38,095 nucleotides of DNA from an uncultured Muribaculaceae bacterium. Lineage in GTDB: Bacteria > Bacillota_I > Bacilli_A > RF39 > UBA660. The translations under genes and the position numbers were made by a program. Shown here in pieces: positions 4,533 through 26,549 of the stretch. Each line of letters begins with the position of its first letter. Positions within the stretch are counted from its first letter, which is position 1. The notes under the pieces were generated by a model. That model ran no database searches and was not told the DNA's origin. It was given only the letters and a program-made list of their open reading frames with translations. The stretch lies in assembly GCA_964438315.1 (NCBI GenBank), contig CAYTKH010000003.1:1-38095 (forward strand), given 5' to 3'.

Positions 4533-4893
4533 AAACTTTTGACTTCAAAAAATGATCCGAACTGAGGAATATAGTGAAGGAGTATTACTCTCCTTCATAT
4601 ATTCCTTATTTTTTTGGAATAATGTTCTTTGACAATTTAATAAGAATAGTTGAATACGTTTTTAATATGTCGGTTAGACAAGCTCATTAATAAGTATGCT
4701 TGTGAATAATGCGATTAAAAATATTAAGTATAATGATACTTCTACTAAGATACTAACTATTTAATAGAGGTGTAACCTATGGAATTGATTCATAATCAAT
4801 TGTTCAACTATTAGAAAACATTTAGAAAATAAAGATATATTCATACCTAAAATTTTAAATATTAAATTCATAAAAAAGAAAGGACGTGGAAAT
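4533..4893 (+). ncRNA. Conserved structured leader, copy 1 (putative promoter, hairpin, boxA-like motif, multi-stem RNA)
   Basis: Aligns along its length with 24204-24536; hairpin 4564-4607, TGTTCTTTGACA 4623-4634, closing stem 4645-4656/4801-4812. Confidence 0.65.
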
Positions 4894-5592
4894 ATGAATG
4901 AAACAAATGTAGGGGATTTCTCTATGGAGGATATTTATTTTAAAGATGCATTTACAAAAACAGGAAATAAATTAAATTTAGAGGTGAATGATGTAACAGT
5001 AGATTCAATTATTTCCAAAAATAATAAATTTGGAATTGATAGTGAAGGAAATCTAAGTGTAAATAGCATTTCTTCAAATCAGGGATTTAATATACCGATT
5101 GGTGATTTAGTTTACCCAGTAGGATCAATCTATCTTACCGTAAATAATAGCAATCCATCTTCTTTGTTTGGAGGAAGTTGGGAGAGGATTCAAGGTAGAT
5201 TTTTACTAGGTGCAGATGAATATTATCAAACTGGAACGATGGGAGGATTTTATTCTGTTACAAGTGGAGAACCATCAAACAATGAAACAGGAGCTGCTAA
5301 TGGAAATACAGGAAGTACCACTTTAACTATCGATCAAATTCCAGGTCATGACCATCGTTCAAGAGGTTCTACTTTCATCGAAGGTGGTAGTGGTGCTGGG
5401 TCAGTCGCTACTATGAACTTTGCGGCAGGTAATTATAAAAGACATCATTATGAAACAACCTTAGAAACAGGTGGAGGACAAGGACATACACATACACTAA
5501 ATTCACATACACATACACTAAATTCACATACACATACTGTTTCAGTTATGCCTCCTTATTTAGCAGTTTCAATTTGGAAGCGAATAGCCTAA
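4894..5592 (+). CDS. Phage baseplate gp10-C-terminal / tail-collar-needle-like protein, copy 1
   Basis: YPVGSIY...NPSSLFGGSWERIQGRFLLGA...LTIDQIPGHDH...MPPYLAVSIWKRIA; paralog of 24537-25115. Confidence 0.8.
   Translation: MNETNVGDFSMEDIYFKDAFTKTGNKLNLEVNDVTVDSIISKNNKFGIDSEGNLSVNSISSNQGFNIPIGDLVYPVGSIYLTVNNSNPSSLFGGSWERIQGRFLLGADEYYQTGTMGGFYSVTSGEPSNNETGAANGNTGSTTLTIDQIPGHDHRSRGSTFIEGGSGAGSVATMNFAAGNYKRHHYETTLETGGGQGHTHTLNSHTHTLNSHTHTVSVMPPYLAVSIWKRIA
5484..5537 (+). repeat. 21-bp tandem repeat (2.6 copies) encoding HTHTLNS
   Basis: ACATACACATACACTAAATTC twice plus a partial third copy, in frame. Confidence 0.9.
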
Positions 5593-5657
5593 TTATTTAT
5601 TGAATATATAATTTATTTTCTAAATCATCTTTTAATAAAACGGAATGGAGGAGAAAA

Positions 5658-8600
5658 ATGGAACAAATTGAATTAAAAGATTTAAGAAAAACAAGAGAAA
5701 AACATTTTTTGAGAAAAGATGGGCTTATTGTAGCACAACTTTTTGATGACGATATTCATTATAAAAACGGAGAATTTTACGATGAAATTGATAATACCCT
5801 ATTAAAAGATAGTGAATATTATCATAATAAAAGTAATTCATATAAAGTTTACTTTCATGAAAATACAACAGGACTTTTAACAAAAATAGATTTTGATAAT
5901 CATTATATTTGTTATCAACTTAAAAATAGTAATTATGTACAAGCTATGATAGAAAATAACAACTCTAAACTATACAAAAATATAAAATATGAGAACATTT
6001 TAAATGGCATTGATATAAAGTACAATGTAATGCCTACAAAAGTCAAAGAAAATATTATTATAAAAAATAAGGAATCTTTAGTAGAAAAAATCAGTTTTAA
6101 TATTGAAACAGATTTAACGTTAAAGTTGAATGTTGATAAAAGTATATATGCTCTATCAAATGAAGAAATAATATTTAAAATAGATGCTCCTTACTTAATC
6201 GATATAAATGGTAAAGTTATAAATGAAGTTTCTTATAAACTTAAAAAAAATAATGATGGATATCTTTTAGAACTTATTATTGATAAGTCAATATTTGAAA
6301 ATATTGAACTTGAATATCCGATTACAATTGATCCAACAATAACCAACTATACGAGTAACAATATGTACGATACTTATATTTATCAAGGTGATACAAATGT
6401 TTCTCGCAGTAATCTACCATATTTAAAAGTTGGTGTTGAAAATGTAAACGGAACAAATGTGATTAATAGAACTTTAATAAAATTTGATTTACCAACAATA
6501 GGAACGGGAAGTCAAATTGTATATGCAGGCTTGGATTTAACAGGATATCCTATAGTAGAAGGCTCATCTGATGAAAGTGTGATTTGTGTTCATCAAATTA
6601 CCTCTGATTGGTTAGAATCAGGTGCAAATTGGAATAATATGAACGATAAATATCAATCTAGAATAGAAGCATCATTTATAGGTATAAGAAGTATTGCCGA
6701 TATTGAAGGAACTATACAACATTTGTATCACAATGAATGTGAAATTACAAACTTGGTGAAAAAATGGTATACTTCGGATCCTAATTATGGTATTATGCTA
6801 AAAGCAAATAAAGAGGTTTATAAAAATGGTATAATACCTATGTTCTTTTCAAAAAATCATGGCATTGATAATGTTGAATTAAAGCCACTACTAACGATCG
6901 TTTACAAAAATCAAAATGGTGTAGAGTCCTATATGGATTATAAGGTACAATCCTTTAGTCAAGGAAAAACATATTTGAATACTTATAATGGTAATTTAAC
7001 AAGTATTTTTGAAGTTGGATCTACTAAAACAGGAAAGATGCCAATTAATTTGAATCTTGTTTATAATACAAATGATGTTATTTTAAATAATGATTTAGGT
7101 TATGGTAAAGGTTATAATTTAAGTCTTGGACAAACTATTAAAGAAACTACAATCGATTCTATAAATTATTTGGAATATCTAGATGATGATGAAACAATCC
7201 ATTATTTCAGATTAATTGATAACATTTATAAAGATGAAGATGGTCTTGATATGACAATTGAAAAACAAGACTCTGAATGTATCTTAAAAGATAAAGATGG
7301 TAATAAAATGTTCTTTAATAAAGATGGAAATATATTTTATCTAACTAAAATTAAAGATACAAAAGAAAATATGGCAACAATTACATATAATACAAATCAT
7401 ACAATTTCTAAGGTAATAGATGCTTCATCATCAGAAATTAATATCACTTATCAAGATAATAAAATTATAATAGTAAGTCCAAATCAAACTGTAACTTTAA
7501 ATTATATTAATAATATTCTTACTAGTTTAGCAAAAAAATCTGGTGTAACTACATTTAATTATAATGATAATTTTCTAATTACGAGTATTACAGATGAAAA
7601 TGATTTAAAAATATGTTATGAATATTATGACTATGTTCCATATCGTATAAAAAAAGTGATAGAATTTGCAACTGATAATAGTGTAGGAAATTACTTCAAT
7701 GTAACTTATAATTTTAATTCAACAACAATTATTGATAATAAAAATAAAGCAGAAACCCTAACTTTTAATAATTATGGAAATGTAGAAACTATTACAAGTT
7801 TAAAAAATCATGATGATATTTTAAATGCTTATGGTAAAAATATGCAATATGGAAATGAAGGATATAGTGATGGAAGTGTTTACATTCCAATAAAAAATAA
7901 ACTTTTAAATTATGATATTCCATGTAAATATGTAAAAAATTACTTATCAAATTCTAGTTTTGAAGAAAATAATATTTTATTTACTAAAACAAGTAACGTA
8001 TCGTTATCAATATCAAATGATATATCAGTATCTGGTTTTAAATGTTTAAAAGCTATATCAACATCTATTAATCAAGTTATTAGTCAAAGTATTATTGTAC
8101 CAAAGGATAATTATTATACATTTAGTACATATATAAAAAATTCATCGCCTTTAAAAATCGTATTAAGTTATATTGATTCAAATAATCAAGAACAAGAAAA
8201 AATAGAATTTATTAAATCTAGTGAATCATTTGAAAGATATGATGTTACAACCTATTATCCAAATGATGCAACTAGTAATTTAGTAATTAAAATTGTTTTA
8301 GATGAAGCAGGTACTTATTATATAGATGATGTTCAATTAGAACAAAGTGAGGTAGCTAATTACTATAATTTATTAGATAATTCAGATTTTTCAAAAGGAA
8401 TTAGTGATTGGAGCCTTACAGTACAAGATAACTTAACAGGTTTACCTATATCTTCATCAAATGTTTTTTCAAAAGTAGATTTAAATAATGATGTAACAGC
8501 TTTAAAAATCAAAATGGATCCTGAAAATTCAACTACTGTATCCAAAACATTTAATATTAATGGAAAAGCAAAAGATACATATTATATTTCATTTTGGTAT

Positions 8601-11600
8601 AAAAATGAAGGATACCCTGCATATGATGGTGTTGGATCTGAAGTTATGAACAGTGTAATTATTACTTTCAATTATATAGATGATGAAAATGGACAGTGTG
8701 TTTTACCATCTAAACCATTTAATCCAAACGAGTTTGAATGGCAATACTTTACAGCTAAATTTGAAGCTATAAAAGATTTTGATTCGATGGAATTGTGTTT
8801 CCTACAGTATGGTGAAGCAAATGACTTATATATTACAAATATTAGTTTATTTAAAGATGTTAGAGATGTACATTATGAATATGATGAATCAGGAAATCTT
8901 ACAAGTATAAACGATTTAACAAATCAATCAACTTCATTTAAATATGATACAAATAATCAACTAATTAATATGATGAATCCAAAAGGAACTAATTTTAGTT
9001 ATGAATATAATAAAGAGATAACTGATCAAGTTTTAAATGGAATTAGTGAATCTGGTATATCTAATAAGATAAAATATGATTCTAATAATAATCCAATTCA
9101 AACTAAAATTATTAAAAATCAAACCTCTTATGAAGATATACCCGATGGATATTATAGAATAAAAGTAAAAGGTACAAATAAATATGTTAGATGTACTAAA
9201 TTAGGTGTTGTTTTAACAGAATATGATTCAAAACATAATAATTGGTATATTTTAAAAGAAAATGGTCTATATAAATTAAGACACTGTATTTCAGAAAATT
9301 TATATTTAAATGCTAATTTAAATGATATATTTGTATCTCAAAGTTACTGTTATATAAATTTTCATCTTCAAGAAAATCATCTATATTTGCTAGAAATAGG
9401 AAATAGTAATAATTATTTAAAAGTTGATGGTTCATCATTAGTTATTTCAAATCTAGAAGATAATCATGATAATTTTGAATTTTATCTAGAAAGTATAGAT
9501 AATGAAGAATTTATTGAAAGTAATGCAGAATATACATCTGATGGAAAAGTTATGACTAGTATAACTGATTCTTTATTACATAAGACTCTTTATGACATAG
9601 ATTGCGAAAGTGGACAAGTAAATTCTATTACAAATCCAAATGGTGTTATTACTACATATAGTTATAATGATAAAGATCAATTAACTTCTATATCAACAAA
9701 GGATAAAACTGTTCAATATACATATAATAATCAACAATTACTAGATAAAATTATTCAAAATAATAGACAATATAGTTTTATTTATGATAAATTTTTAAAT
9801 GTTAAACAAATAAAATTAAACAACATTCCTTTAGTAACTAATAATTATGAAGAAAATAATGGTAATTTATTATCTAGTACATATGGTAATAATCAAACAA
9901 TTTCTTTTGAATATGATGATTTTAATAGATTGAAATTAAAGACAAAAAGTGATGATACTTATAAATATATGTATGATAACAATGGTGCTTTAGTAAAGAT
10001 TTTATCAAATAATGATATTATAAAATATACTTATGATATGGCAAAAAGATTATGTCAGTATAGACTTAATGATTTTAAAATTAAATATACTTATGATGCT
10101 AATTTTAATGTTGTATCTAAAATATATGAGTTAGATGATATAAAACATGTAGTAAATTATACATTAAATAATGAAGATATGGTTACTAAGATAGCCCTTG
10201 ATGAATTAGAGATGAACTATGAATATGATAGTTTACAAAGATTAAAGAAAACAACAGGTATTATTAGTGATAGCTATTCTTATGTAACAAATGGTAAGAG
10301 AACATCTATGTTAGTAAAGAAGATGAATAACGTCTCATATGTTTACAATCGTTTAAATAGCATAACACATATCTATAATGGAGAGGTATTAGAACACAGA
10401 TATTACTATGATGATTACAATGAATTAATAAAGGAAAATGATTATGTTTTAAATCAAACGATTGTTTATGAATATGATGATTTAGGAAATATCTTATCAA
10501 AGAAGATTTATAATTTAAATACTAATACATTAATTGATGAAAACATTTATGAGTATAATAATTCAAATTGGATAGATCAATTAACAAAGTTTAATAATAC
10601 AGTAATTACTTATGATGAAATAGGAAATCCTTTAACTATTGGAAATATTCAATTAAATTGGATAAATGGTAGACAATTAAAAGAATATAATGATTCAAAT
10701 TTAAATATTGAATATAAGTATAATGTAGATGGTATTAGAACATGTAAGATAGTAAATGATATTGAAACAAAATATTATTTAGAGGGAAGAAAAATAATAT
10801 TTGAAAAGTGTGGTAATAATGTGATATACTATATGTATGATGAAGCAGGAGAAATTATTGGATTACAATATAACAATACACCTTATTACTATATAAAAAA
10901 TAATCAAAATGATATTATTGCTATAGAAGATAATAATCATTTTGTACTAGCTAAATATACCTATGATTCATGGGGAAATATTATTTCAATTAAAGATATA
11001 AATGGAGTAGATATAAGTAATAATCCAAATAATATTGCAAATATAAATCCATTTAGATATAGAAGTTATTATTATGATGTAGAAACAAAGTTATATTATT
11101 TAAATAGTAGATATTATAATCCATTATGGGGAAGATTTATAAATGCAGATGGTATAATTGGAGCGAATAAAGATATATTATCTTATAACTTATATGCATA
11201 TGTAAGTAATGATCCTATTAATAAAGTTGACTCTGATGGAGAAATGGCTTTAACACTATTCACAACCAGCATACTAGCGGTAGCTATGGCAGTGATGTCT
11301 GTAGTGGCAAGTAAGGTAATCAGTAATGCATTATCTGAAATAGACTTAACGCTTCCAGTTAAAAAACAACTTACTGTACCAGATTTAACCAAGACACATT
11401 CAAAGGATGATACAAAGGTTCAAAGTAAAGTTATTTCTAAAGTATCAGCTGTTTCAAATGTTAAAGAAAATATAACAAGTAAGGATATAACAAAGCCATG
11501 TACTCGTGCAAAAATAGAAGGAAATGATGTAGAAAGGTACGGGGAAAGACTTACTGTTAAAAAAACAGCAAGTGTTGTTATGAGTGGAAATAGTGTAATG

Positions 11601-11762
11601 TGTGATACAGAATTTGATGTATGGAGAGTTGGAAGTAAAATTTATGGAGGTATATATTATGATGGGAAACATAAAAATATGTCAAATTATTATCAGCATT
11701 ATCATCCAAATCGTTGGTCAAATTCAAAAGGAGAACATCCACATATATGGTATTATGATTAA
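5658..11762 (+). CDS. Rhs/YD-repeat polymorphic toxin (WapA-like; DNRLRE, CBM-like and ricin-like domains; His-rich C-terminal toxin)
   Basis: 2034 aa; DTYI..G...RTLIKFDLP (DNRLRE-like), NxLxNSxF CBM-like starts, many YxYD repeats, Rhs core NPFRYRSYYYD...RYYNP.WGRFINAD...NLYAYVSNDPINKVDSDG. Confidence 0.93.
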   Translation: MEQIELKDLRKTREKHFLRKDGLIVAQLFDDDIHYKNGEFYDEIDNTLLKDSEYYHNKSNSYKVYFHENTTGLLTKIDFDNHYICYQLKNSNYVQAMIENNNSKLYKNIKYENILNGIDIKYNVMPTKVKENIIIKNKESLVEKISFNIETDLTLKLNVDKSIYALSNEEIIFKIDAPYLIDINGKVINEVSYKLKKNNDGYLLELIIDKSIFENIELEYPITIDPTITNYTSNNMYDTYIYQGDTNVSRSNLPYLKVGVENVNGTNVINRTLIKFDLPTIGTGSQIVYAGLDLTGYPIVEGSSDESVICVHQITSDWLESGANWNNMNDKYQSRIEASFIGIRSIADIEGTIQHLYHNECEITNLVKKWYTSDPNYGIMLKANKEVYKNGIIPMFFSKNHGIDNVELKPLLTIVYKNQNGVESYMDYKVQSFSQGKTYLNTYNGNLTSIFEVGSTKTGKMPINLNLVYNTNDVILNNDLGYGKGYNLSLGQTIKETTIDSINYLEYLDDDETIHYFRLIDNIYKDEDGLDMTIEKQDSECILKDKDGNKMFFNKDGNIFYLTKIKDTKENMATITYNTNHTISKVIDASSSEINITYQDNKIIIVSPNQTVTLNYINNILTSLAKKSGVTTFNYNDNFLITSITDENDLKICYEYYDYVPYRIKKVIEFATDNSVGNYFNVTYNFNSTTIIDNKNKAETLTFNNYGNVETITSLKNHDDILNAYGKNMQYGNEGYSDGSVYIPIKNKLLNYDIPCKYVKNYLSNSSFEENNILFTKTSNVSLSISNDISVSGFKCLKAISTSINQVISQSIIVPKDNYYTFSTYIKNSSPLKIVLSYIDSNNQEQEKIEFIKSSESFERYDVTTYYPNDATSNLVIKIVLDEAGTYYIDDVQLEQSEVANYYNLLDNSDFSKGISDWSLTVQDNLTGLPISSSNVFSKVDLNNDVTALKIKMDPENSTTVSKTFNINGKAKDTYYISFWYKNEGYPAYDGVGSEVMNSVIITFNYIDDENGQCVLPSKPFNPNEFEWQYFTAKFEAIKDFDSMELCFLQYGEANDLYITNISLFKDVRDVHYEYDESGNLTSINDLTNQSTSFKYDTNNQLINMMNPKGTNFSYEYNKEITDQVLNGISESGISNKIKYDSNNNPIQTKIIKNQTSYEDIPDGYYRIKVKGTNKYVRCTKLGVVLTEYDSKHNNWYILKENGLYKLRHCISENLYLNANLNDIFVSQSYCYINFHLQENHLYLLEIGNSNNYLKVDGSSLVISNLEDNHDNFEFYLESIDNEEFIESNAEYTSDGKVMTSITDSLLHKTLYDIDCESGQVNSITNPNGVITTYSYNDKDQLTSISTKDKTVQYTYNNQQLLDKIIQNNRQYSFIYDKFLNVKQIKLNNIPLVTNNYEENNGNLLSSTYGNNQTISFEYDDFNRLKLKTKSDDTYKYMYDNNGALVKILSNNDIIKYTYDMAKRLCQYRLNDFKIKYTYDANFNVVSKIYELDDIKHVVNYTLNNEDMVTKIALDELEMNYEYDSLQRLKKTTGIISDSYSYVTNGKRTSMLVKKMNNVSYVYNRLNSITHIYNGEVLEHRYYYDDYNELIKENDYVLNQTIVYEYDDLGNILSKKIYNLNTNTLIDENIYEYNNSNWIDQLTKFNNTVITYDEIGNPLTIGNIQLNWINGRQLKEYNDSNLNIEYKYNVDGIRTCKIVNDIETKYYLEGRKIIFEKCGNNVIYYMYDEAGEIIGLQYNNTPYYYIKNNQNDIIAIEDNNHFVLAKYTYDSWGNIISIKDINGVDISNNPNNIANINPFRYRSYYYDVETKLYYLNSRYYNPLWGRFINADGIIGANKDILSYNLYAYVSNDPINKVDSDGEMALTLFTTSILAVAMAVMSVVASKVISNALSEIDLTLPVKKQLTVPDLTKTHSKDDTKVQSKVISKVSAVSNVKENITSKDITKPCTRAKIEGNDVERYGERLTVKKTASVVMSGNSVMCDTEFDVWRVGSKIYGGIYYDGKHKNMSNYYQHYHPNRWSNSKGEHPHIWYYD

Positions 11763-11777: not shown

Positions 11778-12500
11778 ATGCTTGTAAAAAAAATTTCAGA
11801 TAATGCTTTTTTAGAATTGATAAAATATTCGATAGATAAGAGTAATTATATTTCATTTTTTGTCCAATATAATCGATGTAATCCATGTGACGAATATATA
11901 GTTAAAATCATTTTAGAAGAAGAAAATAAGGATAACGAAACATTTTTTAATACTTATGCACTAGAAGATATTCAAAAATTTGAAAAAAAATATAAGTATG
12001 TAAATAGAATCCAAGAGTTAATACAGCCATATTTTAAAGAATTTCAAGGAGATAATATTTCATTTGAAGACTTTGTAGCGATATATGTACGTGTTGCACT
12101 TATTGATGCATATTACAAATATTATTCTCAAAAAAATTTAGATAATTATATGAGCGAATTAGTTTATGAGCAAAAACATTATTATGGTATAAATAATGAT
12201 TTGTTGGGAATAACTTATTATTTTAAAATTGATGAATATATAAAAAATAGTATTTTATCAAGTAAAAAGAAAATATGGGATTGGATATACCCATATGGTT
12301 TAGAAAACATTTCTTTTCTAAAAGATAATCAATATTGGCTTAAATCAGTAGCTCATGAAAAATTATGTGATATTTACTGTGAATCAGAACAAGAATATAG
12401 GTATTTAAAATCAATTGGTGTTGAGTTTTATGAAAATGAGTATGTACCAATTTCAGATGAAGAAAAAGTAGATATTACAGTTGATGGATTTAAAATATAA
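11778..12500 (+). CDS. Putative cognate immunity protein of the Rhs C-terminal toxin (cytoplasmic)
   Basis: Immediately after the toxin, RBS AAAGGGGG; no TM segment; paralog of 12820-13668 (WxYP..LE.....S.AHE..CD.YC.SE.EYR..KSIGV.F.E). Confidence 0.7.
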   Translation: MLVKKISDNAFLELIKYSIDKSNYISFFVQYNRCNPCDEYIVKIILEEENKDNETFFNTYALEDIQKFEKKYKYVNRIQELIQPYFKEFQGDNISFEDFVAIYVRVALIDAYYKYYSQKNLDNYMSELVYEQKHYYGINNDLLGITYYFKIDEYIKNSILSSKKKIWDWIYPYGLENISFLKDNQYWLKSVAHEKLCDIYCESEQEYRYLKSIGVEFYENEYVPISDEEKVDITVDGFKI

Positions 12501-12510
12501 TTTTAGAAAA

Positions 12511-12802
12511 AGTTAAAATATATAACAGAAAAAGATACTAATATGTTCTCTCTCACTCTGTTATTAAAAATGGCGATATTGTTTGTCTTAATCCTAAAAT
12601 TGATATTCCAACAACAGTTATAGTTGTAAAAAATGGTTCAAGTGTAATGTGTGATGATGAATTTTCTGCTTTTGAAGTAGCTATTAATTTTATAGGATTT
12701 ATTGGTCCTGAAATTGATAAAAATAAAAAATTTGGTAATACATATTATTATCACTATCATCCAGATAGGAATTCTCATAGGCATATATGGTATTATAATT
12801 AA
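12511..12802 (+). pseudogene. Orphan Rhs C-terminal toxin fragment, paralog of the main toxin tip
   Basis: Hand translation VIKNGDIV...VKNGSSVMCDDEFSAFEV...YYYHYHPDRNSHRHIWYYN* matches main toxin VMSGNSVMCDTEF...YYQHYHPNR...HPHIWYYD*; frameshift near 12550. Confidence 0.85.
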
Positions 12803-12819
12803 AATTTGGAGGAATATAT

Positions 12820-13668: not shown

Positions 13669-13764
13669 TGCTATCTTTTATATAAATTTGCTTATAATAA
13701 ACAGTTATTATAATTTAACTAAAAGGATAAAAATGTTTGTGTTCTTATCTAGAGAATAACATAA

Positions 13765-17821: not shown

Positions 17822-17908
17822 AACTAGTCTTTTTTTTTAATCCTACGATTCATAGAGTGACTTCTTTTAATAGCTGTAATATTATAGTTTTAGAAAGAAG
17901 GAATTTTT

Positions 17909-18556: not shown

Positions 18557-19418
18557 AATATCCAATTTTATAAAAGAAAAAAGAAAGAAATTAGGAATTA
18601 CTCAAGATGAATTAGCTGAAAAGCTATTCGTTACTGAAAAAGCTATTTCAAGATGGGAAACAGGAAGAGGGACTCCAGATATATCTTTACTTCTTCCATT
18701 ATCCCAAGAACTTAATATAGATGTATCAGAATTATTAAATGGAGAGGAAAATAAGAAAAGTAAAAATGAAGTAGAAAGATTAATTGAATATAACGAAATT
18801 ATTAAAGCAAACAAATATAACTTTCAATTTAAATCAACTATATTCTTTTATATATTGTCTATATTGTCTTTCTTGGTTTATTTAAAATTTGAATATAACC
18901 CCAATATAGAAGTTAATTATTTTATTAGATTATTAATTATAGTTCTTGCTTCTATATTTGTAATTATTGGTAATAAAATATATAGTAATAACTATGTTGA
19001 AAAACTAGAAGATAAAAAGAAAGTATTAAAACTTTCTCGTGTAATAGTATTTATATATTACGTAATCTTATTATTTAACATGACTGTATTTGCTAGATAT
19101 AACAATATTAATAGTTATAATTTAATTCCATTTAAATCTATAATTGATACATTTAAAAATGAAACAACATACTCAATTATTATAAATATATTTGGAAACT
19201 TGTGTATATTTATGCCATTAGAATACTTCTTAATAGAATTATTTAAGGTAAAAAGATTTTTAAATAGTTTAATATTATCATTTAATATTATCTTATTAAT
19301 AGAATTACTACAATATGTGTTTAAGATTGGAATATTAGATATAGATGATTTAATATTATGTACTTTTGGTATGATGATATTTTACATTATATATATAAGA
19401 ATTAGAAAAGATGATTAA
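18543..19418 (+). CDS. XRE-family HTH fused to a VanZ-like membrane domain
   Basis: IKEKRKKLGITQDELAEKL.VTEKAISRWETGRGTPD (XRE HTH); NLIPFKSI...NIFGNL..FMPL...IELLQ...DIDDLIL (VanZ). Confidence 0.85.
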   Translation: MDLNKISNFIKEKRKKLGITQDELAEKLFVTEKAISRWETGRGTPDISLLLPLSQELNIDVSELLNGEENKKSKNEVERLIEYNEIIKANKYNFQFKSTIFFYILSILSFLVYLKFEYNPNIEVNYFIRLLIIVLASIFVIIGNKIYSNNYVEKLEDKKKVLKLSRVIVFIYYVILLFNMTVFARYNNINSYNLIPFKSIIDTFKNETTYSIIINIFGNLCIFMPLEYFLIELFKVKRFLNSLILSFNIILLIELLQYVFKIGILDIDDLILCTFGMMIFYIIYIRIRKDD

Positions 19419-19748
19419 AGCTCATAATTATTTAAGCCATCATTATGGCATGCCCAAAAAATAATCCAAATTAAGATTTTCCTAGTTTTTAATTATTATA
19501 AAATTATATATGTTGGAAGTCTAGCCAATTTCTTAGAGATAAAAGATTTAGAAAGTTTTATCAAATATATTAAAAGCAAATCAAATTTTCTTAAAATGCC
19601 TTTAAATTGGTGTAAAATTGATAATTATGTCTTTACTTTAAAATTATCTACAAACTGTTTTAAGTTTTAAAAGTAAAGACATTTTTACTAATTATTAACA
19701 ATTATGTAGAATGAATTAAGTAATTATAGTTAATATCTTCAAATATGT

Positions 19749-19808
19749 TATACTATATGTATGATGAAGTAGGAGAAGTAATTTGACTAAAATATAACAA
19801 TACACCTT
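19749..19808 (+). repeat. Degenerate copy of Rhs segment 10825-10884
   Basis: TACTATATGTATGATGAAG(t/c)AGGAGAA...AATATAACAATACACCTT; contains an in-frame TGA. Confidence 0.75.
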
Positions 19809-19809
19809 T

Positions 19810-20097
19810 TCTATAAACAATTTTTTATGCTAATCCAAATGTTAATTCTGCAAAAGATTCTGCTCCAATATATCCAAATTTTTCCATTCTTATCTTCATT
19901 CATAATAAATAATATATCAGTTTTGGTTATATTTTCAAAAAATTCCTTGTGTACACTGGGATAAAGTTGCATAAAATTTCTTTTTCTATTGCTTTTGGAT
20001 AATCTAATACTTCATAATTATTATCAGAAAATTTTTGTTTCCAATAGTTTATATTATCTTGTAATTTAGCATTGCTTACAATTACCACTTTCTGCAT
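19810..20097 (-). pseudogene. Nucleoside 2-deoxyribosyltransferase-fold pseudogene B
   Basis: Joined frames read MQKVVIVSNAKLQ...DILFIMNEDKNG..GYIGAESFAELTFGLA*; two frameshifts and a stop. Confidence 0.55.
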
Positions 20098-20109
20098 TAT
20101 AGTTCTTCT

Positions 20110-20449
20110 TTACAATTTAATTATTTCTTTTAAGTTTTCATCATCAGTACCTACTAATCTAACAATACTAGGTAACTTATAGAAATTAACTGTATTTCAA
20201 TACTAAATTCTTCTTTAGTTTCAGAACATAAGAATATTTTTTTGTTTAATGTTATTCCTATTCCTAATTCAATATGAGTTTCTCTTCCTGTTGGTAGTAA
20301 AATAATGACAACATCAGAATCAATAATACCTTGTTGTTTTGATTTAGAATATTCTATTAAATCTTCAATTGTTTCATTTCCATTAATATTTTTGAGTAAT
20401 AATTAACTAATTTACAATTTTTCATTCCTGATCCTATATAAAATTTCAT
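20110..20449 (-). pseudogene. Nucleoside 2-deoxyribosyltransferase-like pseudogene A
   Basis: MKFYIGSGMKN...(frameshift)...GIIDSDVVIILLPTGRETHIELGIG..LNKKIFL...*NTVNFYKLP; RBS GAAGGAAAG. Confidence 0.65.
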
Positions 20450-20499
20450 TTCTTTCCTTCATTTATCTTTTAATTATGGCAAATTCGCCATAATTGTAT

Positions 20500-21525
20500 T
20501 TACCCGTTTAACTCAAAGTTTTTCTTTTCTTCTTCAACGGCACTAATCAACTCTTGTTCTGTTGGCATATGCAATTTGTATTCCGAAGAAAATATTGTTT
20601 TATTATCTTCTGGTAAAGTATATTTTACAACAGTTTTGTTTTTCAATGTTGATAATAAAATTCCAACAGTTGGGTTTTCATCACTGTTTTTTATTTCTCT
20701 ATCATAGTAATTAACATACATTTGCATTTGACCAATATCTTGGTGACTTACTTTACCAATTTTTAAATCAATTATAACAAAACATTTTAAAAGTCTGTTA
20801 TAAAAAACTAAATCTGGATAAAAGTGTTCTTCGTCTAGAGTTAATCTTACCTGAGATCCTACAAACATAAACCCTTTTCCTAATTCTAATAGAAATTCCT
20901 TTAAATGTTCCAATATATTTTTTTCTAAATCAGTTTCTAAATAGTCTGTATTTTCTTTAATATCAAGAAATTCTAAAACAAATGGATCTTTTACTAAATC
21001 TCCACCTGACTCTAAAACTTGACCTTTTTCAGCAAGTTTTAAAATCTTTTCTTTATCAGTAGATAAGGCTAATCTTTCATATAATAAAGAGCCTATTTGC
21101 CTTTGAAGTTCTCTAACACTCCATCTAGTATTTATACATTCATTGAAGTAAAAATTCCTTTTATTATTTTCTTCTATTTTTATTAATTCCAAATAATGCG
21201 ACCAACTCAATTTGGAAGACACTGTCTTCCAAATTGGATATATTAAATAGAATTTTCTCATAGTTCGCAGATTTCTTGAGGAAAAACCTTTCCCAAATTC
21301 ATCTGTTAATTTTTCTGATAATCGATCAAGAACGGAATCACCATAACTTGCTCTTTCATCACCTTGTTGAATTTCCATAATTGCTTTTCCTATATTCCAA
21401 TAAAGATTAAGCATTTCAGCATTTACAGCACTATATACTTTATTTCTACTACTAATAACTAATTCTTTAATATTATCAAATATATTATTGATTTCATTAC
21501 CATTTTTAATTAATTCATTGTCCAT
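20500..21525 (-). CDS. YhcG/DUF1016 PD-(D/E)XK nuclease-domain protein
   Basis: YWNIGK, GKGFS.RNL..MRKFY, LSWSHY, KDPFVLEFL, FLLELGKGF.FVG.Q, DLVFYNRLLKCFVIIDLK, GQMQMYVNY. Confidence 0.92.
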   Translation of the reverse strand: MDNELIKNGNEINNIFDNIKELVISSRNKVYSAVNAEMLNLYWNIGKAIMEIQQGDERASYGDSVLDRLSEKLTDEFGKGFSSRNLRTMRKFYLIYPIWKTVSSKLSWSHYLELIKIEENNKRNFYFNECINTRWSVRELQRQIGSLLYERLALSTDKEKILKLAEKGQVLESGGDLVKDPFVLEFLDIKENTDYLETDLEKNILEHLKEFLLELGKGFMFVGSQVRLTLDEEHFYPDLVFYNRLLKCFVIIDLKIGKVSHQDIGQMQMYVNYYDREIKNSDENPTVGILLSTLKNKTVVKYTLPEDNKTIFSSEYKLHMPTEQELISAVEEEKKNFELNG

Positions 21526-21575
21526 TAATTGCCTCCATTCTTTAATTTAATCATAAGATTTCTTATGTCTAAATT

Positions 21576-21609
21576 ATACTATATATGGTAAAATACTATA
21601 TATGGTAAA
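21576..21609 (+). repeat. 17-bp perfect tandem duplication
   Basis: ATACTATATATGGTAAA twice, in the divergent intergenic region. Confidence 0.8.
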
Positions 21610-21723
21610 AATTCGCTATACTCCCATTGAATTTTTATGACAATTCCTATATAATATTTTATAAAGAGAATAAAGTTCGTAACTTGTATGTGATTTGCTT
21701 TTATATTGAAAGTGTTACTTCCT

Positions 21724-21873
21724 CAATTTGAATATTGGAATTATCTAAGTTGTAAAGGATTAAAGAAATTTGTAGCCACTTTGATAAACAATGAAACAGG
21801 GATGTTTCAAAAAATGGGAATTATTAATAATTACTATATAACTGTTGTTTTTGATGAAAATTTTGATAATTGA
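21724..21873 (+). pseudogene. Orphan toxin C-terminal stub, family of 14570-15145
   Basis: QFEYWNY...ATLINNETGMFQKMGIINNYYITVVFDENFDN* aligns with INLINNGAFLCQEMDIIKQYYITINFDY. Confidence 0.75.
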
Positions 21874-21932
21874 ACTAATATAAACTTTAAAATATGAAAT
21901 TATGTTGTAAAGAGAGGAAGTTATAGAGGTAT

Positions 21933-22601
21933 ATGAAAAATAAATATAAGTTATGGATAATAGAAGGCTATTTTCTTTTGGTATTCATTTTAGCCCTATC
22001 AAGTAATTTTAAATTTCATTATTTCTTCTTTTATTTTCTATTATATACTGGTGTATTACTACCTATATTTTTTCCTATATTTTTAATTGCCAGTGGAATA
22101 TTTGAAAAAAATAGAAAATGGATTACTGGCTTAATTTTAATTACTATAGAAGTGATTGTGATTATCTTGATAATGTTATCAATGTCTTCACCTATAGAGA
22201 CAGTTGTAAGCAATCTAAATTTAAATTTATATGATTCTAAGATTGTTTCAGATAAATCAACAAAAGGTTTTTTTGGAGATGGTATGTATTATATAGTTAT
22301 AGATTGTAAAAAAAGTAAAGAGAAGATTTCAGAGCAAATTAGTAATAGTTGGAAATCACTTCCATTTACAAATAATTTAAATTTAATAATGTATGAAGAA
22401 AATAATTATCATTATCATTTAGCACAAGACATAGTTCTTCCAAGAATAGAGGATGGTTACTATTTATTTGTAAATAGACATTCCAGTGCAAAAAGCAAAT
22501 ATCAAGATGACGACTTATTTGACTATCATTCATTTGATTTTACTTTAGCTATTTATGATATAAAGACAGCTTTATTATATTATTTTGAATATGATACTTA
22601 A
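21933..22601 (+). CDS. Membrane-anchored putative immunity protein
   Basis: Three N-terminal TM helices; GFFGDG motif; C-terminal FTLAIYD...LYYFEYDT; follows a toxin stub. Confidence 0.65.
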   Translation: MKNKYKLWIIEGYFLLVFILALSSNFKFHYFFFYFLLYTGVLLPIFFPIFLIASGIFEKNRKWITGLILITIEVIVIILIMLSMSSPIETVVSNLNLNLYDSKIVSDKSTKGFFGDGMYYIVIDCKKSKEKISEQISNSWKSLPFTNNLNLIMYEENNYHYHLAQDIVLPRIEDGYYLFVNRHSSAKSKYQDDDLFDYHSFDFTLAIYDIKTALLYYFEYDT

Positions 22602-22640
22602 TAAAAATAGAGACTATCTTTTTAAAAAGTTCTTCTATAA

Positions 22641-22781
22641 ATTTATAATGGCTATTCCAATTTAGAGGAACTTAACTTTTGGTTGAGTATAATAAATAAC
22701 ATAGCTTATGTTTATCAAGAGTTAGGATTTTTAGGAAATTATAGATTTTATGTTAATTATAGTTTTGTATATGAAGAATAA
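22641..22781 (+). pseudogene. Orphan toxin C-terminal stub, same family
   Basis: ...LSIINNIAYVYQELGFLGNYRFYVNYSFVYEE* shares the INN-x-A-xxx-QE-x-G-xx-xx-Y pattern; its end resembles the 16075 stub (YSFTYKEEE). Confidence 0.75.
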
Positions 22782-22799
22782 ATAGTTTATGGAGGTAAT

Positions 22800-23315
22800 A
22801 TGAAAGAAAAACATAATAAACTTATTAATAAGTGGTTTGTTATTATAAGTATCTTATTAATTTTTATTATTTTAATAGTAGTATCTTGTTGTTATGAAAA
22901 ATCAATAAGTTTATATATGAATTTCAAAGTGATTTTTCCAGAACCTAATAAGATTGAAACAATATATTATGATAAAAAAATGGGGGCAACAACTGTTGAA
23001 AAATGGACATATAGTCCTAAAAAAATGGCAAAATTTATGAAAAATAAAGATGTAAAAAAAATAGATGTTGATAAGGTTAATCAAATATTTGAAATTTTGG
23101 TAGAAAATGTAAGTTGGTTCAAAAATTACATTGAGATTGATAAAATTTTTGATAAAAAGTTAATTAACGAATCTAATTATTATGCAGTAAAAGTGGATAC
23201 AAAAAATGGTATTACAGAGGATGTTTTTAGTGCCGATTTTTGGTATCGACCTGCTTATTTCATATTAATAGCAGATGTTGAAAATAATGAAGTTTATATC
23301 TTTGAATCTTTTTAA
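22800..23315 (+). CDS. Membrane-anchored putative immunity protein, paralog of 16146-16607
   Basis: GGAGG RBS; N-terminal TM; motif blocks shared with 16146. Confidence 0.65.
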   Translation: MKEKHNKLINKWFVIISILLIFIILIVVSCCYEKSISLYMNFKVIFPEPNKIETIYYDKKMGATTVEKWTYSPKKMAKFMKNKDVKKIDVDKVNQIFEILVENVSWFKNYIEIDKIFDKKLINESNYYAVKVDTKNGITEDVFSADFWYRPAYFILIADVENNEVYIFESF

Positions 23316-23331
23316 TTCATAAGAAAAACAT

Positions 23332-23379
23332 ATAAAAAATGTTAAAAAGTAGTATATTTAAAATATATTACTTTTTTTT
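23332..23379 (+). repeat. Near copy of the tsf stop/terminator region 4379-4425
   Basis: AAAAATGTTAAAAAGTAGTATATTTAAAATATATTACTTTTTTT vs AAAAATGTTAAAAAGTGATATATTCAAAATATATTGCTTTTTTT. Confidence 0.8.
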
Positions 23380-23680
23380 AACTTATTAAACTAAGAAAGG
23401 ATGTATTTTATAAAGCAATGATTAAAAAATATATTGTGTTAGATTTTAAATAATTAAGTAATAGTATTTAAGTACAATATTTTTGTATAACAACCATTGT
23501 AGATGTTTGGTACTTGTTTATGATAAATTTTTTTTTAGTTGTATGTTGTATCAAATATTATATTAATATTATTTTGTTTAATAATTATTACAAAATGGTA
23601 AGTAGTGCTAAATTTCTTCAAAACCTGAAGAAATTTTATATTTTCTTAAGCCTTAAAAGAACTTTAAAAAAAGCACGTTC

Positions 23681-23723
23681 ACCTCCTTTATCAATTCAAA
23701 AAAATTTGGAATTGATAGGAGGT
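23681..23723 (+). promoter_or_regulatory. Hairpin sequestering the sigma-gene ribosome binding site
   Basis: ACCTCC-tt-TATCAATTC...GAATTGATA-GGAGGT; anti-SD pairs with the SD 5 nt before the ATG. Confidence 0.6.
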
Positions 23724-23728
23724 AAAAA

Positions 23729-24226
23729 ATGAAAAATTTTCCAAAGAGAAGAAAAGACAAAAATAATCCTTATACATTGGGATTTAATGAAAATACAAAC
23801 AGTTATACAGTTACATTTATCGATTCATTAAGAAATATACAAACAATCGATATTACATATGAATTATATCTTGCATTTAATCAATTTGAATTAAATGATT
23901 TATCATTTATGAATGAATATGATAGGCATATTGAACATTTAGAACAAACAGAGGCATATCTTTATCAAAAATCCATCAAAGAACATATTGATATAGAAGA
24001 TGAAGTAATTAAGAAAATTACATATCAAGAATTAAAAAAAAATATAGAATCTTTACCTGATATTCAAAAGAGAAGACTAAAAATGTATTTTTTTGATGAT
24101 TTGAATTTAAAGCAAATTGCTGAAATAGAGGGTTGCTCCATTCGATCTATTAAATATAGTATTGATATAGCAATTGAAAAATTATCAAAAAATAAAAAAA
24201 TTCAAACTTTTGACTTCAAAAAATGA
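23729..24226 (+). CDS. Sigma-70 region-4 (ECF-like) regulator of the type found on mobile elements
   Basis: PKRRKDKNNPYTL...NEYDRHIEH...IESLPDIQKRRLKMYFFDDLNLKQIAEIEGCS...AIEKL (region 4 HTH). Confidence 0.85.
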   Translation: MKNFPKRRKDKNNPYTLGFNENTNSYTVTFIDSLRNIQTIDITYELYLAFNQFELNDLSFMNEYDRHIEHLEQTEAYLYQKSIKEHIDIEDEVIKKITYQELKKNIESLPDIQKRRLKMYFFDDLNLKQIAEIEGCSIRSIKYSIDIAIEKLSKNKKIQTFDFKK

Positions 24227-24536
24227 TTTTAACTGAGGAATATAGTGAAGGGGATTACTCTCCTTCATATATTCCTTATTTTGTTCTTTGACAGTTGAAC
24301 AAGAATAGTTGAATACGTTCTTAATATATCGGTTAGACAAGCACTTTAACAAGTATGTTTACGAATAATATTTGATTATAAATATTAAGTAGCTGATACT
24401 TCTACTAAAATGCTAGCTATTTAATAGAGATGTAACTATGGAATTGATTCATAATCAATTGTTCAACTATTAGAAAAATTTAGAAAATATTTATGCAATA
24501 AGTACTAAATTCATAAAAAGGAAAGGACGTGGAAAT
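24204..24536 (+). ncRNA. Conserved structured leader, copy 2
   Basis: Homologous to 4533-4893; hairpin 24235-24277, TTGTTCTTTGACAGTTGAAC 24281-24300, closing stem 24304-24315/24460-24471. Confidence 0.65.
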
Positions 24537-25115
24537 ATGAATGGAACTAATTCAGGAAATTTTTCGATGGAGGATATTTATTTTAAAGATGCATTTACAA
24601 AAACAGGAGATAAATTAAATTTAGAGGTGAATGATGTAATAATAGACTCTATTATTTCCAAAAATAACAAATTCAGTTTGGATGAAGAGGGTAATTTAAT
24701 TGTAAAAACATTATCAACAACAGGTGGACTATCAAATATTACAGAAATAGTAAATTTAATATATCCTGTTGGTTGTATTTATATATCAGTAAATAATGTA
24801 AACCCATCTACTTTATTTGGGGGAACATGGGAACAAATTAAAGACAGATTTTTACTTGCTTGTGGTGATACTTATACGAGCGGTACTATTGGTGGAGAAG
24901 CAACTCATACTTTAACTATTTCTGAAATGCCTAGTCATGGTCATAAGGCAACTTATAGTCCATCGGCAGTTGGTACTGGGTGGGAGAGCTATAGAACTGG
25001 TAATAGTACTACTAGAGGATTAAATGACTATTTAAATGCCTATACTGGTGGTGGACAAGCACATAACAATATGCCACCTTATTTAGCAGTTTCTATTTGG
25101 AAAAGAATAGCTTAA
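24537..25115 (+). CDS. Phage baseplate gp10-C-terminal / needle-like protein, copy 2
   Basis: N-terminal ~55 aa nearly identical to 4894; YPVGCIY...NPSTLFGGTWEQIKDRFLL...GGEATHTLT..EMPSHGH...GGGQAHNNMPPYLAVSIWKRIA. Confidence 0.82.
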   Translation: MNGTNSGNFSMEDIYFKDAFTKTGDKLNLEVNDVIIDSIISKNNKFSLDEEGNLIVKTLSTTGGLSNITEIVNLIYPVGCIYISVNNVNPSTLFGGTWEQIKDRFLLACGDTYTSGTIGGEATHTLTISEMPSHGHKATYSPSAVGTGWESYRTGNSTTRGLNDYLNAYTGGGQAHNNMPPYLAVSIWKRIA

Positions 25116-25176
25116 TTATTTGAATGTATAATTTATTTTCTAAATCATCTTTTAATGAAATGGAATGGAGGTAAAA

Positions 25177-25479
25177 ATGTTAAATTTTATATTAAAATAT
25201 TGGATAGAAATTTTGTTTACATCTTTAACTTCGGGAATCATATATGTAACAAAGGAATATTCAGGCTTAAGAAATGGCCTTCAATCAATACTTAGAAATG
25301 AAATTGTAAGAATATATGAAACATATTCAAAATTGGGATATTGCCCAAGTTATATGAAAGAAAACGTTAGTAAAATATATGTAAGCTATCACAAGTTAAA
25401 AGGAAATGGTATGGCTACTGCTATGATTAATGAAATATATAAATTACCAAATACAAAGGAGGAAAAACATGCAAAATAA
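25177..25479 (+). CDS. Phage lysis-module holin-like protein with one N-terminal TM
   Basis: GGAGG RBS before ATG 25177; GLQSILRNEI...Y..LGYCP...YxSYHKLKGNG pattern common upstream of endolysins. Confidence 0.6.
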   Translation: MLNFILKYWIEILFTSLTSGIIYVTKEYSGLRNGLQSILRNEIVRIYETYSKLGYCPSYMKENVSKIYVSYHKLKGNGMATAMINEIYKLPNTKEEKHAK

Positions 25480-25660
25480 ACTAATAAAACAAATTTGTGA
25501 ATTATTAAAAGTAAAATCAATTATTACTCTTATATCTTTTATAGCATTTTTTAATCTATCTATGACTTCAAAATTAGATACTGATAACTTTATGTTGATA
25601 CTAGGAATGATTACAACTTATTTTTTTAATAAAGAAAGAAGTGACTCAAAAGATGAATAA
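25469..25660 (+). CDS. Small two-TM holin-like protein
   Basis: AAGGAGG RBS before ATG 25469; [10 protein letters not shown]...[11 protein letters not shown], charged tail; overlaps the endolysin start. Confidence 0.65.
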
Positions 25661-26549
25661 AAGAAGAGCAATAGATATTTCCTCTTATCAAACAAATGTA
25701 GATTATAATAAGGTTAAAAATGATGGTATAGAAATGGTTATTTTGAGAGTTGGTTTTACTGGATATGGTGTAATGAAAACGAAACAAAAAGATAAAATGT
25801 TTGAAAAACATTACAAAGGATTTAAGAATGTAGGAATACCTATTGGAGTATACTGGTATTCTTGTGCTTATACAGAAAAAGAAGCCAAAGAAGAAGCTAA
25901 AAAAGTTTTAGAATATATCAAAGAAAAAGAAATTGAATTACCTATTTTCATAGATGTCGAAGATAACCATGATACAACTAAGATAGGTAATGCAAAGCAA
26001 AATCAATATAGTTTAGGAAAAAAACAATTGACTAAAGTTGTAAATGCTTTTTGTAAAACGATTGAAGAGTCTGGATATTATGTAGGAATATATGCTAGCA
26101 CATATTGGTTAAATACAAAATTAGACATGAATGTTTTAAAGAAATATGATATTTGGGTTGCTCACTATAATGTAAATAAACCAACTTATAAAGGAAAATA
26201 TGGAGTTTGGCAGTATACTTCTAAAGGAAAAGTAAATGGAATTAATGGAAATGTAGATTTTGATTATATTTATAAAGCATATCCAGATATTATAAGAAAA
26301 AAAGGTTTAAATAATATTACAATTAAAGGTAATAATAAAGTTCAAGATTATAACCAAGTACAAAGTAATTATAAAAAACAAGATATAATTTATATTGTAA
26401 AAAAAGGGGATACTTTGAGTGGAATTGCTAAAAAATATAATACTACATACCAAAAACTCGCTGAATATAATAATATTTCCAATCCTAATTTAATTCTAAT
26501 TAATCAGATAATAAAGATTCCAAAACCAACTACTAAGAATATTATATAG
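25653..26549 (+). CDS. GH25 muramidase (endolysin) with C-terminal LysM, no signal peptide
   Basis: [41 protein letters not shown]; Lys[14 protein letters not shown]; alternative start GTG 25641. Confidence 0.92.

Follow-up and report, generated by a model that had tools for sequence, protein, structure and literature searches.

A signal-less Rhs toxin gene paired with a phage fiber-tip gene: a probable rearranged toxin island between tsf and frr in an uncultured RF39 bacterium

Results

We analyzed a stretch of 38,095 nucleotides (hereafter the window; contig CAYTKH010000003.1 of assembly GCA_964438315.1, from an uncultured RF39 bacterium) that carries, in an island between tsf and frr, a gene for a 2034-aa Rhs toxin without a signal peptide behind a gene for a phage fiber-tip protein (gp10C). 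In related loci these two genes stay together, a signal peptide on Rhs and a neighboring gp10C exclude one another, and a regulator with a sigma-70 region 4 co-occurs with lysis genes; in the window itself, the leader and parts of gp10C are repeated in front of lysis genes, and family matches establish the domain content of the main products. With moderate confidence, we read the window as holding, in rearranged form, a toxin island of phage origin that is conserved among relatives and has gp10C and a signal-less Rhs at its core. An earlier note on this DNA had described two modules, one leading into the Rhs toxin and one into a lysis cassette, under a common sigma factor. The source is a metagenome-assembled genome (69.5% complete, 1.28 Mb, 123 contigs). 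G numbers denote genomes (G000 is that of the window), L numbers loci, C numbers contigs, and X1 to X4 samples; coordinates without a locus label are those of the window, with the strand in parentheses.

gp10C accompanies Rhs genes that lack a signal peptide

Related loci came from three sources: a search for the regulator in 151 genomes of the family, a scan with Rhs residues 1-481 over one genome per species (5 loci), and a search with the same residues in 401 family genomes, which returned 44 genomes from 39 of 214 genera. The two other genomes of the window's own genus gave no match to these residues. The set holds 48 loci including the window, or 47 distinct ones since L039 and L094 are duplicates, and L092 is nearly identical to L093. 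In 39 of the 46 assessable loci, gp10C directly precedes Rhs on the same strand, so that the partnership of the fiber-tip gene with Rhs that the earlier note had proposed is a conserved one. It lies downstream of Rhs in three loci (L071, L100, and L109) and was not seen in four (L097, L107, L108, and L110), while L101 is cut by a contig end.

Signal peptides were called by a hydropathy test rather than by SignalP. Among the 44 Rhs N-termini of the main group, the maximum 12-residue hydropathy was at most 1.18 (L101 is N-terminally cut); in the window it was 0.92, so that the Sec signal of the WapA subtype is lacking, and no in-frame start codon is possible upstream of 5658. A hydrophobic N-terminus was found in 0 of 41 orthologues, consistent with the leaderless Rhs of the earlier note. 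With L101 excluded, gp10C was in view for 42 of the 43 signal-less Rhs genes. Within the family, L107, L108, and L110 have signal-like N-termini (2.45-2.59) and no gp10C. At the class level, the Rhs N-terminal domain occurs in 20 genomes of eight other families, and all 10 contexts fetched from these show signal-like N-termini (2.41-3.70) without gp10C or the regulator. Overall, gp10C stands beside 0 of 13 signal-bearing Rhs genes vs. 42 of 43 signal-less ones. This association of signal-peptide loss with gp10C gain is fairly surprising, and it is testable.

The Rhs toxin and its putative immunity genes

The toxin gene (5658-11762, +) encodes a Rhs/WapA-like protein that consists of an all-beta N-terminal domain (residues 1-232), a DNRLRE region (238-414; NF033679, E = 1.3e-21) corresponding to the surface or carbohydrate-binding region of WapA-type proteins, YD repeats (PF05593, E = 4.4e-27; TIGR01643, E = 3.4e-17), an RHS core (1768-1861; TIGR03696, E = 1.6e-17), a hydrophobic helix, and a C-terminal toxin that matched no family. 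The matches to RHS repeats, DNRLRE, and RHS core uphold the description of a 2034-aa Rhs protein with DNRLRE in the earlier note. The model of residues 1-240 is all-beta (pLDDT 90.6), and in the predicted structure residues 44-233 form a galactose-mutarotase-like beta sandwich, with Z scores in the 11-12 range (Z = 12.2, rmsd 3.2, 174 residues aligned).

Behind the toxin gene lies imm1 (11778-12500, +; 240 aa), which matched no family and is a putative cognate immunity gene judging from the positions of its homologues, found behind Rhs or orphan C-terminal fragments in L071, L074, L079, L082, and L103. An orphan array of toxin tips and immunity genes follows (12551-23315, +), with Rhs fragments at about 12551-12802, 14498-14561, 16836-16989, and 19742-19808, the immunity-like gene imm2 (12820-13668, +), which is related to imm1, and other cargo that includes small membrane proteins, an XRE-VanZ gene (18543-19418), and a YhcG-like nuclease gene (20500-21525, -). 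Homologues of imm1 and imm2 trail Rhs or orphan tips in seven other loci. The variable C-terminal toxin, the adjoining immunity gene, and the displaced orphan tips identify a polymorphic toxin system, with putative activities. A 154-nt stretch in the 3' part of the Rhs gene (10607-10760) recurs with 98% identity in the orphan fragment at 16836-16989, and is likely a recombination site for toxin-tip swapping.

The fiber-tip proteins and the duplicated leader-gp10C segment

Both modules carry a phage fiber-tip (Gp10_C) gene, as the earlier note had stated. gp10Ca (4894-5592, +; 232 aa) matched PF21939 (E = 1.5e-21) and tail proteins in PHROGs, and has no signal peptide; gp10Cb (24537-25115, +; 192 aa; PF21939, E = 3.9e-21) has a different receptor-binding middle, and its residues 67-192 share ~50% identity with the antireceptor tip of Lactobacillus delbrueckii phages. 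It likewise has no signal peptide. Small gp10C homologues stand directly before the lysis genes of streptococcal prophages. In an alignment of 22 gp10C sequences, a strand motif at the N-terminus and the final ~15 residues are kept, and the intervening part is hypervariable and has large insertions. A predicted complex of three gp10Ca chains with Rhs residues 1-240, supplied as alignments, scored 0.00 in a run with no controls and speaks neither for nor against binding.

A small coiled-coil ORF (65-158 aa) without Pfam or PHROG match lies between gp10C and Rhs in 12 loci (e.g., L087:5608-5976 and L074:14015-14365), and gp10C in these loci is mostly of a long form (350-417 aa) with an extra N-terminal domain of ~170 aa. 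In G010 (L039/L094), a C39-peptidase ABC transporter gene and a 57-aa peptide with a double-glycine leader lie directly upstream of gp10C-Rhs, two types of antibacterial weapon thus adjoining each other.

The leader and gp10C are duplicated in the window. Eight collinear direct-repeat segments (86-100% identity, offset 19,520-19,671 bases) relate 4525-5657 to 24196-25177, among them 4525-4580/24196-24251 (93%), 4623-4710/24282-24369 (88%), 4777-4818/24436-24477 (100%), 4856-5063/24499-24706 (86%), 5547-5598/25070-25121 (90%), and 5595-5657/25115-25177 (+, 89%), the last being the spacer with the ribosome-binding site. Pairwise alignment shows that the two copies share the leader, the first ~65 and last ~16 codons of gp10C, and the spacer up to the ribosome-binding site and ATG, and that they differ in the middle of gp10C and in everything past the ATG, where copy 1 continues into the Rhs toxin and copy 2 into the lysis genes. 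The earlier claim of ~1.0-1.1 kb of homology up to the ATG, followed by divergence, is therefore confirmed by both repeat search and alignment. In a search of the whole genome, the 369-nt leader found its second copy at E = 3.8e-106 (83% identity) and a third, weaker copy on contig C46.

We checked a 20-kb stretch of the assembly against Logan contigs (k = 31, 100% identity) from four samples of a single study, possibly including the source sample. The gp10Ca-Rhs junction is bridged in all of them (contigs spanning 5508-10636 in X1 and X2, 5508-8489 in X3, and 5508-6196 in X4), an X1 contig (21470-24465) joins the region before the regulator to leader 2, and the gp10Cb-hol1 junction is bridged in X1 and X2 by contigs that start at 24579 and extend beyond 25300. 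The 114 bases at 24465-24579, within the repeat, are bridged by no Logan contig, as expected at k = 31.

Lysis genes and gene order in related loci

The second gp10C copy is followed by hol1 (25165-25479, +; likely start ATG 25177; phrog_4105), a putative membrane-anchored accessory lysis protein whose homologues are followed by a small holin-like gene and a lysin gene in L071, L075, L088, and L030. Next to it, hol2 (25430-25660, +; phrog_13256) is small, has two hydrophobic stretches, and is likely a holin, with homologues in L071 and L076; relatives carry Phage_holin_4_1 (E = 1.2e-22). The earlier note's reading of these two genes as holin-like is thus a matter of size, position, and hydrophobic stretches, their family matches being limited to PHROGs of unknown function. 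The third gene (25641-26549, +) encodes a muramidase of family GH25 that also has a LysM domain (Pfam, E = 5.8e-31 and 2.5e-17; phrog_291, endolysin, E = 1.6e-60), identified as such in the earlier note and corroborated here by Pfam and PHROG. This endolysin has no signal peptide and no N-terminal hydrophobic stretch, as in the signal-less hydrolases that adjoin the cargo of type 10 secretion systems.

The regulator is present in 12 of the 47 Rhs loci, and holin-like and/or hydrolase genes are in view in 18. Of the regulator-bearing loci, the 10 that can be viewed downstream (L034 and L037 are truncated) all have lysis genes, as do 8 of the 35 regulator-less loci, so that regulator and lysis cassette travel together, as previously suggested. 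The hydrolases are non-orthologous, with at least four unrelated enzyme families in the regulator-bearing loci. Over all loci, they are GH25-LysM in the window and L071; M23 in L030, L072, L074, L077, L088, L092, and L093; M23-LysM in L096 and L106; Amidase_2 in L036; M15_3 in L040; CW_7-LysM in L075; and a PHROG endolysin family in L073.

A single operon unites the genes for regulator, gp10C, Rhs, immunity, holin, and lysin in L075, L030, L036, and L088, and in a different order in L071. The order is regulator-gp10C-Rhs-imm-hol1-TM-lysin in L075 and regulator-gp10C-Rhs-hol1-holin-M23 in L030, while L071, the closest relative, has regulator-Rhs-imm-tip-imm-hol1-hol2-GH25-gp10C. L076, from another genus, has the order of the window, with a regulator-less leader before gp10C-Rhs and the regulator directly before hol2. 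Given these single-operon relatives and their differing orders, the window is one of several rearrangements of a common gene set. Circular permutation was considered for the orders of L071, L076, and the window and rejected, because no single cut yields them. A group II intron D1-D4 fragment (RF02001, 49.7 bits) lies at L036:12568-12738, between the Rhs immunity gene and the holin.

The regulator and its leaders

The regulator (23729-24226, +; 165 aa) combines an N-terminal three-stranded sheet and helices with a C-terminal sigma-70 region-4 helix-turn-helix (PF08281 and PF04545, E about 4e-6). Its PDB profile matches are to region 4 of FliA, SigF, and SigW. The predicted structure (pLDDT 77.9) comprises the three-stranded sheet, a long helix, and the C-terminal helix-turn-helix; Foldseek aligned it to isolated region-4 chains (TM 0.82-0.87, 54-79 columns at low rmsd), and a Foldseek search against the PDB returned only region-4 rows, with no match at E ≤ 0.001. 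Region 2 was not detected in Pfam, NCBIfam, or PDB profiles, and NCBIfam sigma matches were all far under their cut-offs. Because only the helix-turn-helix resembles sigma factors in profile and fold, we refer to a region-4 regulator and not to a sigma factor; the proposal of an alternative sigma factor like TcdR is unproven, region 4 being the sole sigma match. The earlier note had called this the only intact sigma-70 region-4 gene, abutting the module-2 leader; elsewhere in the genome, a second regulator copy with a leader lies on C46.

Before the regulator lies a hairpin (23681-23723, +; fold energy -19.1 kcal/mol, z = -3.67, equaled by none of 200 shuffles) in which the ribosome-binding site of the gene is paired to an anti-Shine-Dalgarno-like stretch. 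This stretch is kept upstream of regulator homologues, and in many loci it appears as the end of a spurious 'RSPP'-type ORF. Leader copy 1 (4525-4893, +) carries a 3' remnant of the regulator gene (~30 nt) along with a terminator-like hairpin (4574-4598), a conserved box that contains TTGACA, and a pemK-RNA region in degenerate form. It has no regulator ORF in front, so that a regulator copy was either lost or never copied there. Leader copy 2 (24196-24536, +) has a terminator hairpin (24245-24268) and the conserved box, together with what is left of a pemK RNA. When 21 leaders are aligned, three elements stand out: a long terminator hairpin, the conserved box with TTGACA, and a structured stretch, which is the pemK RNA motif (Rfam RF02913; 62.6 bits, above the gathering score, on C46). 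RF02913 exceeds its gathering score upstream of gp10C in six of eight Rhs-type loci (L030, L034, L036, L075, L076, and L088) and in none of seven regulator-less loci, and an Rfam search of 23300-25200, which includes leader copy 2, gave no match at E ≤ 1.

Of the 151 family genomes, 17 have homologues of the regulator. In seven loci (six relatives and C46) the regulator and leader precede a small ORF, a MazF/PemK-like gene, and serine or tyrosine recombinases, a combination that constitutes a mobile-element module. The shared leader, through which the earlier note had linked the two modules, is thus not specific to the Rhs system. It is the degenerate form of a cassette of mobile elements, made up of terminator, promoter-like box, and RF02913, that usually stands before MazF/PemK and recombinases. 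The C46 element (L006:4735-9661, -) has a regulator copy of 48% identity and a full pemK RNA (8882-8962), behind which come a 62-aa ORF, a gene resembling MazF/PemK, two genes for large serine recombinases, and part of a resolvase gene. Beside it lie ORFs that we take, from sequence alone, to be yabG, spoVG, yabP, and yabQ, and the makeup resembles that of a mobile element that has integrated, or of a skin-like one.

Insertion site, and prophage and T7SS genes

The island is flanked by tsf (3507-4382) and frr (27402-27944), and its GC content is 23.9% vs. 28% in the flanks. In G392 the gene order is rpsB-tsf-frr-nusB-xseA, with a tsf-frr gap of ~150 nt; the window therefore contains an insertion of ~23 kb. 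In G197, of the same genus, frr has other upstream neighbors and no tsf, which does not make a clean empty site, unlike G392. The left edge coincides with the tsf terminator hairpin, copy 1 of a 45-nt direct repeat (4381-4425, +), which is 91% identical to the terminator-like copy 2 (23335-23379, +). These could possibly be att sites of two islands integrated in tandem, a reading weakened by the repeat having two copies only and by the lack of any recombinase in the island. At the right edge, directly before frr, lies a 183-aa ORF (26723-27274, +) without family match, whose counterpart is absent from the tsf-frr gap of G392. We also observed that pyrH is absent between tsf and frr both in the layout of the window genome and in G392 (L119). 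The regulator is immediately preceded by tRNA genes in L071, L036, L034, and L073. This points to tRNA genes as integration sites of the islands that carry the regulator; no integrase was seen in the islands. Further along the window, a T-box leader (RF00230, 105.4 bits) at 34483-34663 lies upstream of ORFs 34693-35079 and 35091-37907.

None of the 30 window ORFs scanned matched virion, integrase, or type VII secretion system (T7SS) families, and the island ORFs scanned include no capsid, portal, terminase, tail tube or tape-measure, or integrase gene, unlike a prophage. The flanks of related loci are housekeeping genes where they were viewed further out (L113 and L114). Tail-like genes lie upstream in one genus only (L092/L093), with no head genes in 18 kb. 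Among 148 flanking ORFs, the 25 most frequent of 124 PHROG families are regulators, methyltransferases, and transporters, with no head or packaging family among these 25 and single matches possible in the remainder. The loci therefore do not lie within complete prophages, which agrees with the earlier note. In G038, upstream of L092, small ORFs and a 574-aa ORF (L111:12023-15355) are arranged like a siphovirus tail module, and reverse-strand lipoprotein genes interrupt before a 652-aa tail protein, lysis genes, and gp10C-Rhs; the tail-like module may be a relic of gp10C-Rhs acquisition.

The absence of virion and T7SS genes reported in the earlier note applies to the window, but for T7SS it does not extend to the genome, where EssC is encoded on contig C87. 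EssC exceeds the cut-off in G000, G010, G017, and G321, three of four relatives tested being positive, and is missing from G282 (95% completeness), which has the full operon. It was found in 21 of the 44 Rhs-positive genomes vs. 180 of all 401 (E ≤ 1e-150), and is thus no commoner with Rhs. The Rhs protein has no LXG or WXG100 match in Pfam, in contrast to the LXG toxins of T7SSb.

Discussion

We propose a mechanism that, taken as a whole, we hold to be probable if only narrowly so, the action of the regulator on the leaders, release by lysis, contact between gp10C and Rhs, and target binding all being inferred. The regulator would switch on the leader promoters, one before gp10Ca-Rhs and one before gp10Cb-hol1-hol2-GH25, and the cells so switched on would make Rhs, gp10C, immunity, and lysis proteins and then burst or leak. 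The released Rhs, guided by a receptor-binding trimer of gp10C, would attack Gram-positive neighbors that have no immunity protein. With the producer gone, a free toxin particle would have to find its target, and a phage receptor-binding protein would supply the targeting, so that the Sec signal and wall anchoring of WapA would no longer be needed. Release by lysis together with targeting by gp10C would account for the joint occurrence of signal loss and gp10C. A more specific version, which we regard as possible though rather doubtful, is a tail-less, phage-fiber-guided Rhs bacteriocin. Here the gp10C trimer would dock on the Rhs cocoon as an exchangeable aiming subunit for a diffusible particle, in place of Sec export and wall anchoring; the two alleles would stand for two target ranges, and the region-4 regulator with its sequestered ribosome-binding site, together with the pemK-type leader, would act as an altruistic-lysis switch.

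Several points weigh against the reading of a phage-derived toxin island released by lysis. No holin or hydrolase gene was seen within ~4.5 kb upstream or 6 kb downstream in 29 of the 47 loci, several of these views ending at contig edges. Lysis genes are therefore not needed beside every gp10C-Rhs pair, and the coupling to lysis put forward in the earlier note is an accessory layer, present in 18 loci and not universal. The model is weakest at loci that have no cassette nearby, since Rhs would there have to leave by some other route. All signal-less Rhs genes linked to gp10C may belong to one clade, in which case the loci are not independent and our counts could reflect one old event, kept across 39 genera and down to ~36% identity. 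Since no sigma region 2 was detected in it, the regulator may work otherwise than as a sigma factor. Both leaders of the window keep the hairpin, the box, and the ends of the pemK motif and have lost the middle of the RNA, and the leader is common to MazF/PemK-recombinase modules and therefore gives no evidence for a dedicated Rhs-lysis circuit. The PHROGs matched by hol1 and hol2 assign them no function, the genome has the T7SS component EssC, and ORFs of the related loci were called by our own script and clustered by phmmer and BLAST, with cluster representatives alone checked against Pfam and PHROGs.

It is conceivable that the modules are chance neighbors, module 2 being the decayed end of a prophage late operon, the Rhs array a separate island, and the shared 1.1 kb a product of fiber-gene recombination without functional link. 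A small gp10C-like gene, holin, and lysin are indeed the normal end of streptococcal and lactobacillal prophages, L092 and L093 lie behind a tail-protein gene (phrog_372) and tail-like genes, the regulator-leader cassette is a general part of mobile elements, and most loci have no lysis genes in view. We nevertheless consider this unlikely: gp10C stays with Rhs in locus after locus where other phage genes are absent, every assessable regulator-bearing locus has lysis genes, and the differing hydrolase families across these loci point to repeated recruitment and not to shared decay. Housekeeping flanks, and the lack of head and packaging genes among the most frequent flanking families, argue in the same direction. 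A non-lytic exit of gp10C-Rhs, through T7SS, another exporter, or mother-cell lysis at sporulation, would make the lysis cassettes passengers. It would suit the many loci without nearby lysis genes, the EssC of G000, G010, G017, and G321, and the presence of sporulation genes (SpoIVB at 29987-30982, and presumably yabP, yabQ, and spoVG on C46). However, 23 of the 44 Rhs-positive genomes lack EssC at the threshold used, the same share as in the background, G282 has the full operon and no EssC, and the Rhs protein begins with an all-beta sandwich and has no LXG or WXG100 match, so that we give this exit route little credence.

The role of gp10C could also be other than targeting. It might be a chaperone or assembly factor for Rhs inside the producer, or a tether to the producer wall that would lead to WapA-like contact-dependent inhibition. 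The tight gene order, with stop and start codons that sometimes overlap (L030), would fit such a role, as would the coiled-coil ORF of 12 loci, which resembles fiber-assembly helpers, and the carbohydrate-binding-like domains that Rhs itself has. Against it, the C-terminal domain of gp10C is a bona fide phage receptor-binding tip, the protein is hypervariable as expected under selection for target range, and the two alleles of the window differ exactly in the hypervariable part; we judge a chaperone or tether improbable.

How very large Rhs/WapA toxins exit Gram-positive cells and find their targets is an open question, and a study of Streptococcus suis WapA (PMC12704120) describes its passage through the wall as unresolved. 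The locus family looks like a natural experiment, in which the same scaffold occurs either with a Sec signal alone or signal-less with a phage receptor-binding partner. If our reading is true, type 10-like lysis release would extend to interbacterial Rhs toxins of Gram-positive gut bacteria, phage fiber tips would serve as detachable aiming subunits, and the toxin would be modular, with a host range readable from the gp10C allele. The pemK RNA motif and the regulator gain a second genomic context. No paper on a Rhs/WapA protein with a phage fiber-tip partner or holin cassette in Gram-positives was found among the titles and abstract openings covered.

Among known systems, the toxin is closest in makeup to WapA-type Rhs proteins such as those of Bacillus subtilis and S. 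suis (for the latter, PMC12704120), with which it shares the YD shell, the RHS core with a variable toxin, an immunity gene, orphan arrays, and an N-terminal DNRLRE region. It differs in having no Sec signal and no LysM or sortase partner, and in its constant phage fiber-tip partner and, in a subset of loci, the regulator and lysis cassette. We would therefore class it as a Rhs/YD-family toxin with a WapA-like N-terminal region that departs from WapA in its missing Sec signal, and whose release would be of the type 10 kind.

An example of type 10 secretion is the release of Tc toxins by a lysis cassette in Yersinia entomophaga (PMC10847048 and PMC10847046). A very large, signal-less, Rhs-type toxin component is encoded there beside a phage-like holin/endolysin cassette and a dedicated regulator, much as proposed here. 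Release in Yersinia is by lysis of a specialized subpopulation, as it would be in our case. The present organism is Gram-positive, and the locus has no spanin and no TcA/TcB and encodes a presumably antibacterial toxin with immunity genes and a phage receptor-binding-tip partner. The PaLoc of Clostridioides difficile (TcdR, the holin TcdE, and the endolysin remnant TcdL; PMC12485765 and PMC10516005) is similar in that signal-less toxins adjoin a positive regulator, a holin (here the likely holin hol2), and genes that derive from an endolysin, and in that it presumably came from a phage. The present locus differs from it in its region-4-only regulator, its unrelated toxins, and its intact endolysin.

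The pemK RNA cassette (RF02913) of Firmicute mobile elements has a regulator gene, terminator, conserved box, and pemK RNA in the same order as here, but it precedes MazF/PemK pairs and recombinases elsewhere (7 loci) and gp10C in the Rhs loci. The name pemK is absent from the main text of Weinberg et al. 2017 (PMC5737381), whose supplements presumably describe the motif. TcdR, for its part, is a full group-5 sigma factor. Colicins, pyocins, and diffocins are lysis-released or phage tail-like bacteriocins. For colicin-like systems to work, some of the producer cells have to lyse (Zhang et al. 2012, PMC3482391); the word holin does not occur in the available portion of that paper. With such bacteriocins the locus would share release at a cost to the producer, a phage-type receptor-binding part, an immunity protein, and the killing of related strains. 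Unlike the tail-like ones, it has no tail tube, sheath, or baseplate; the killing part is a Rhs cocoon toxin, and the receptor-binding protein is a separate small gene.

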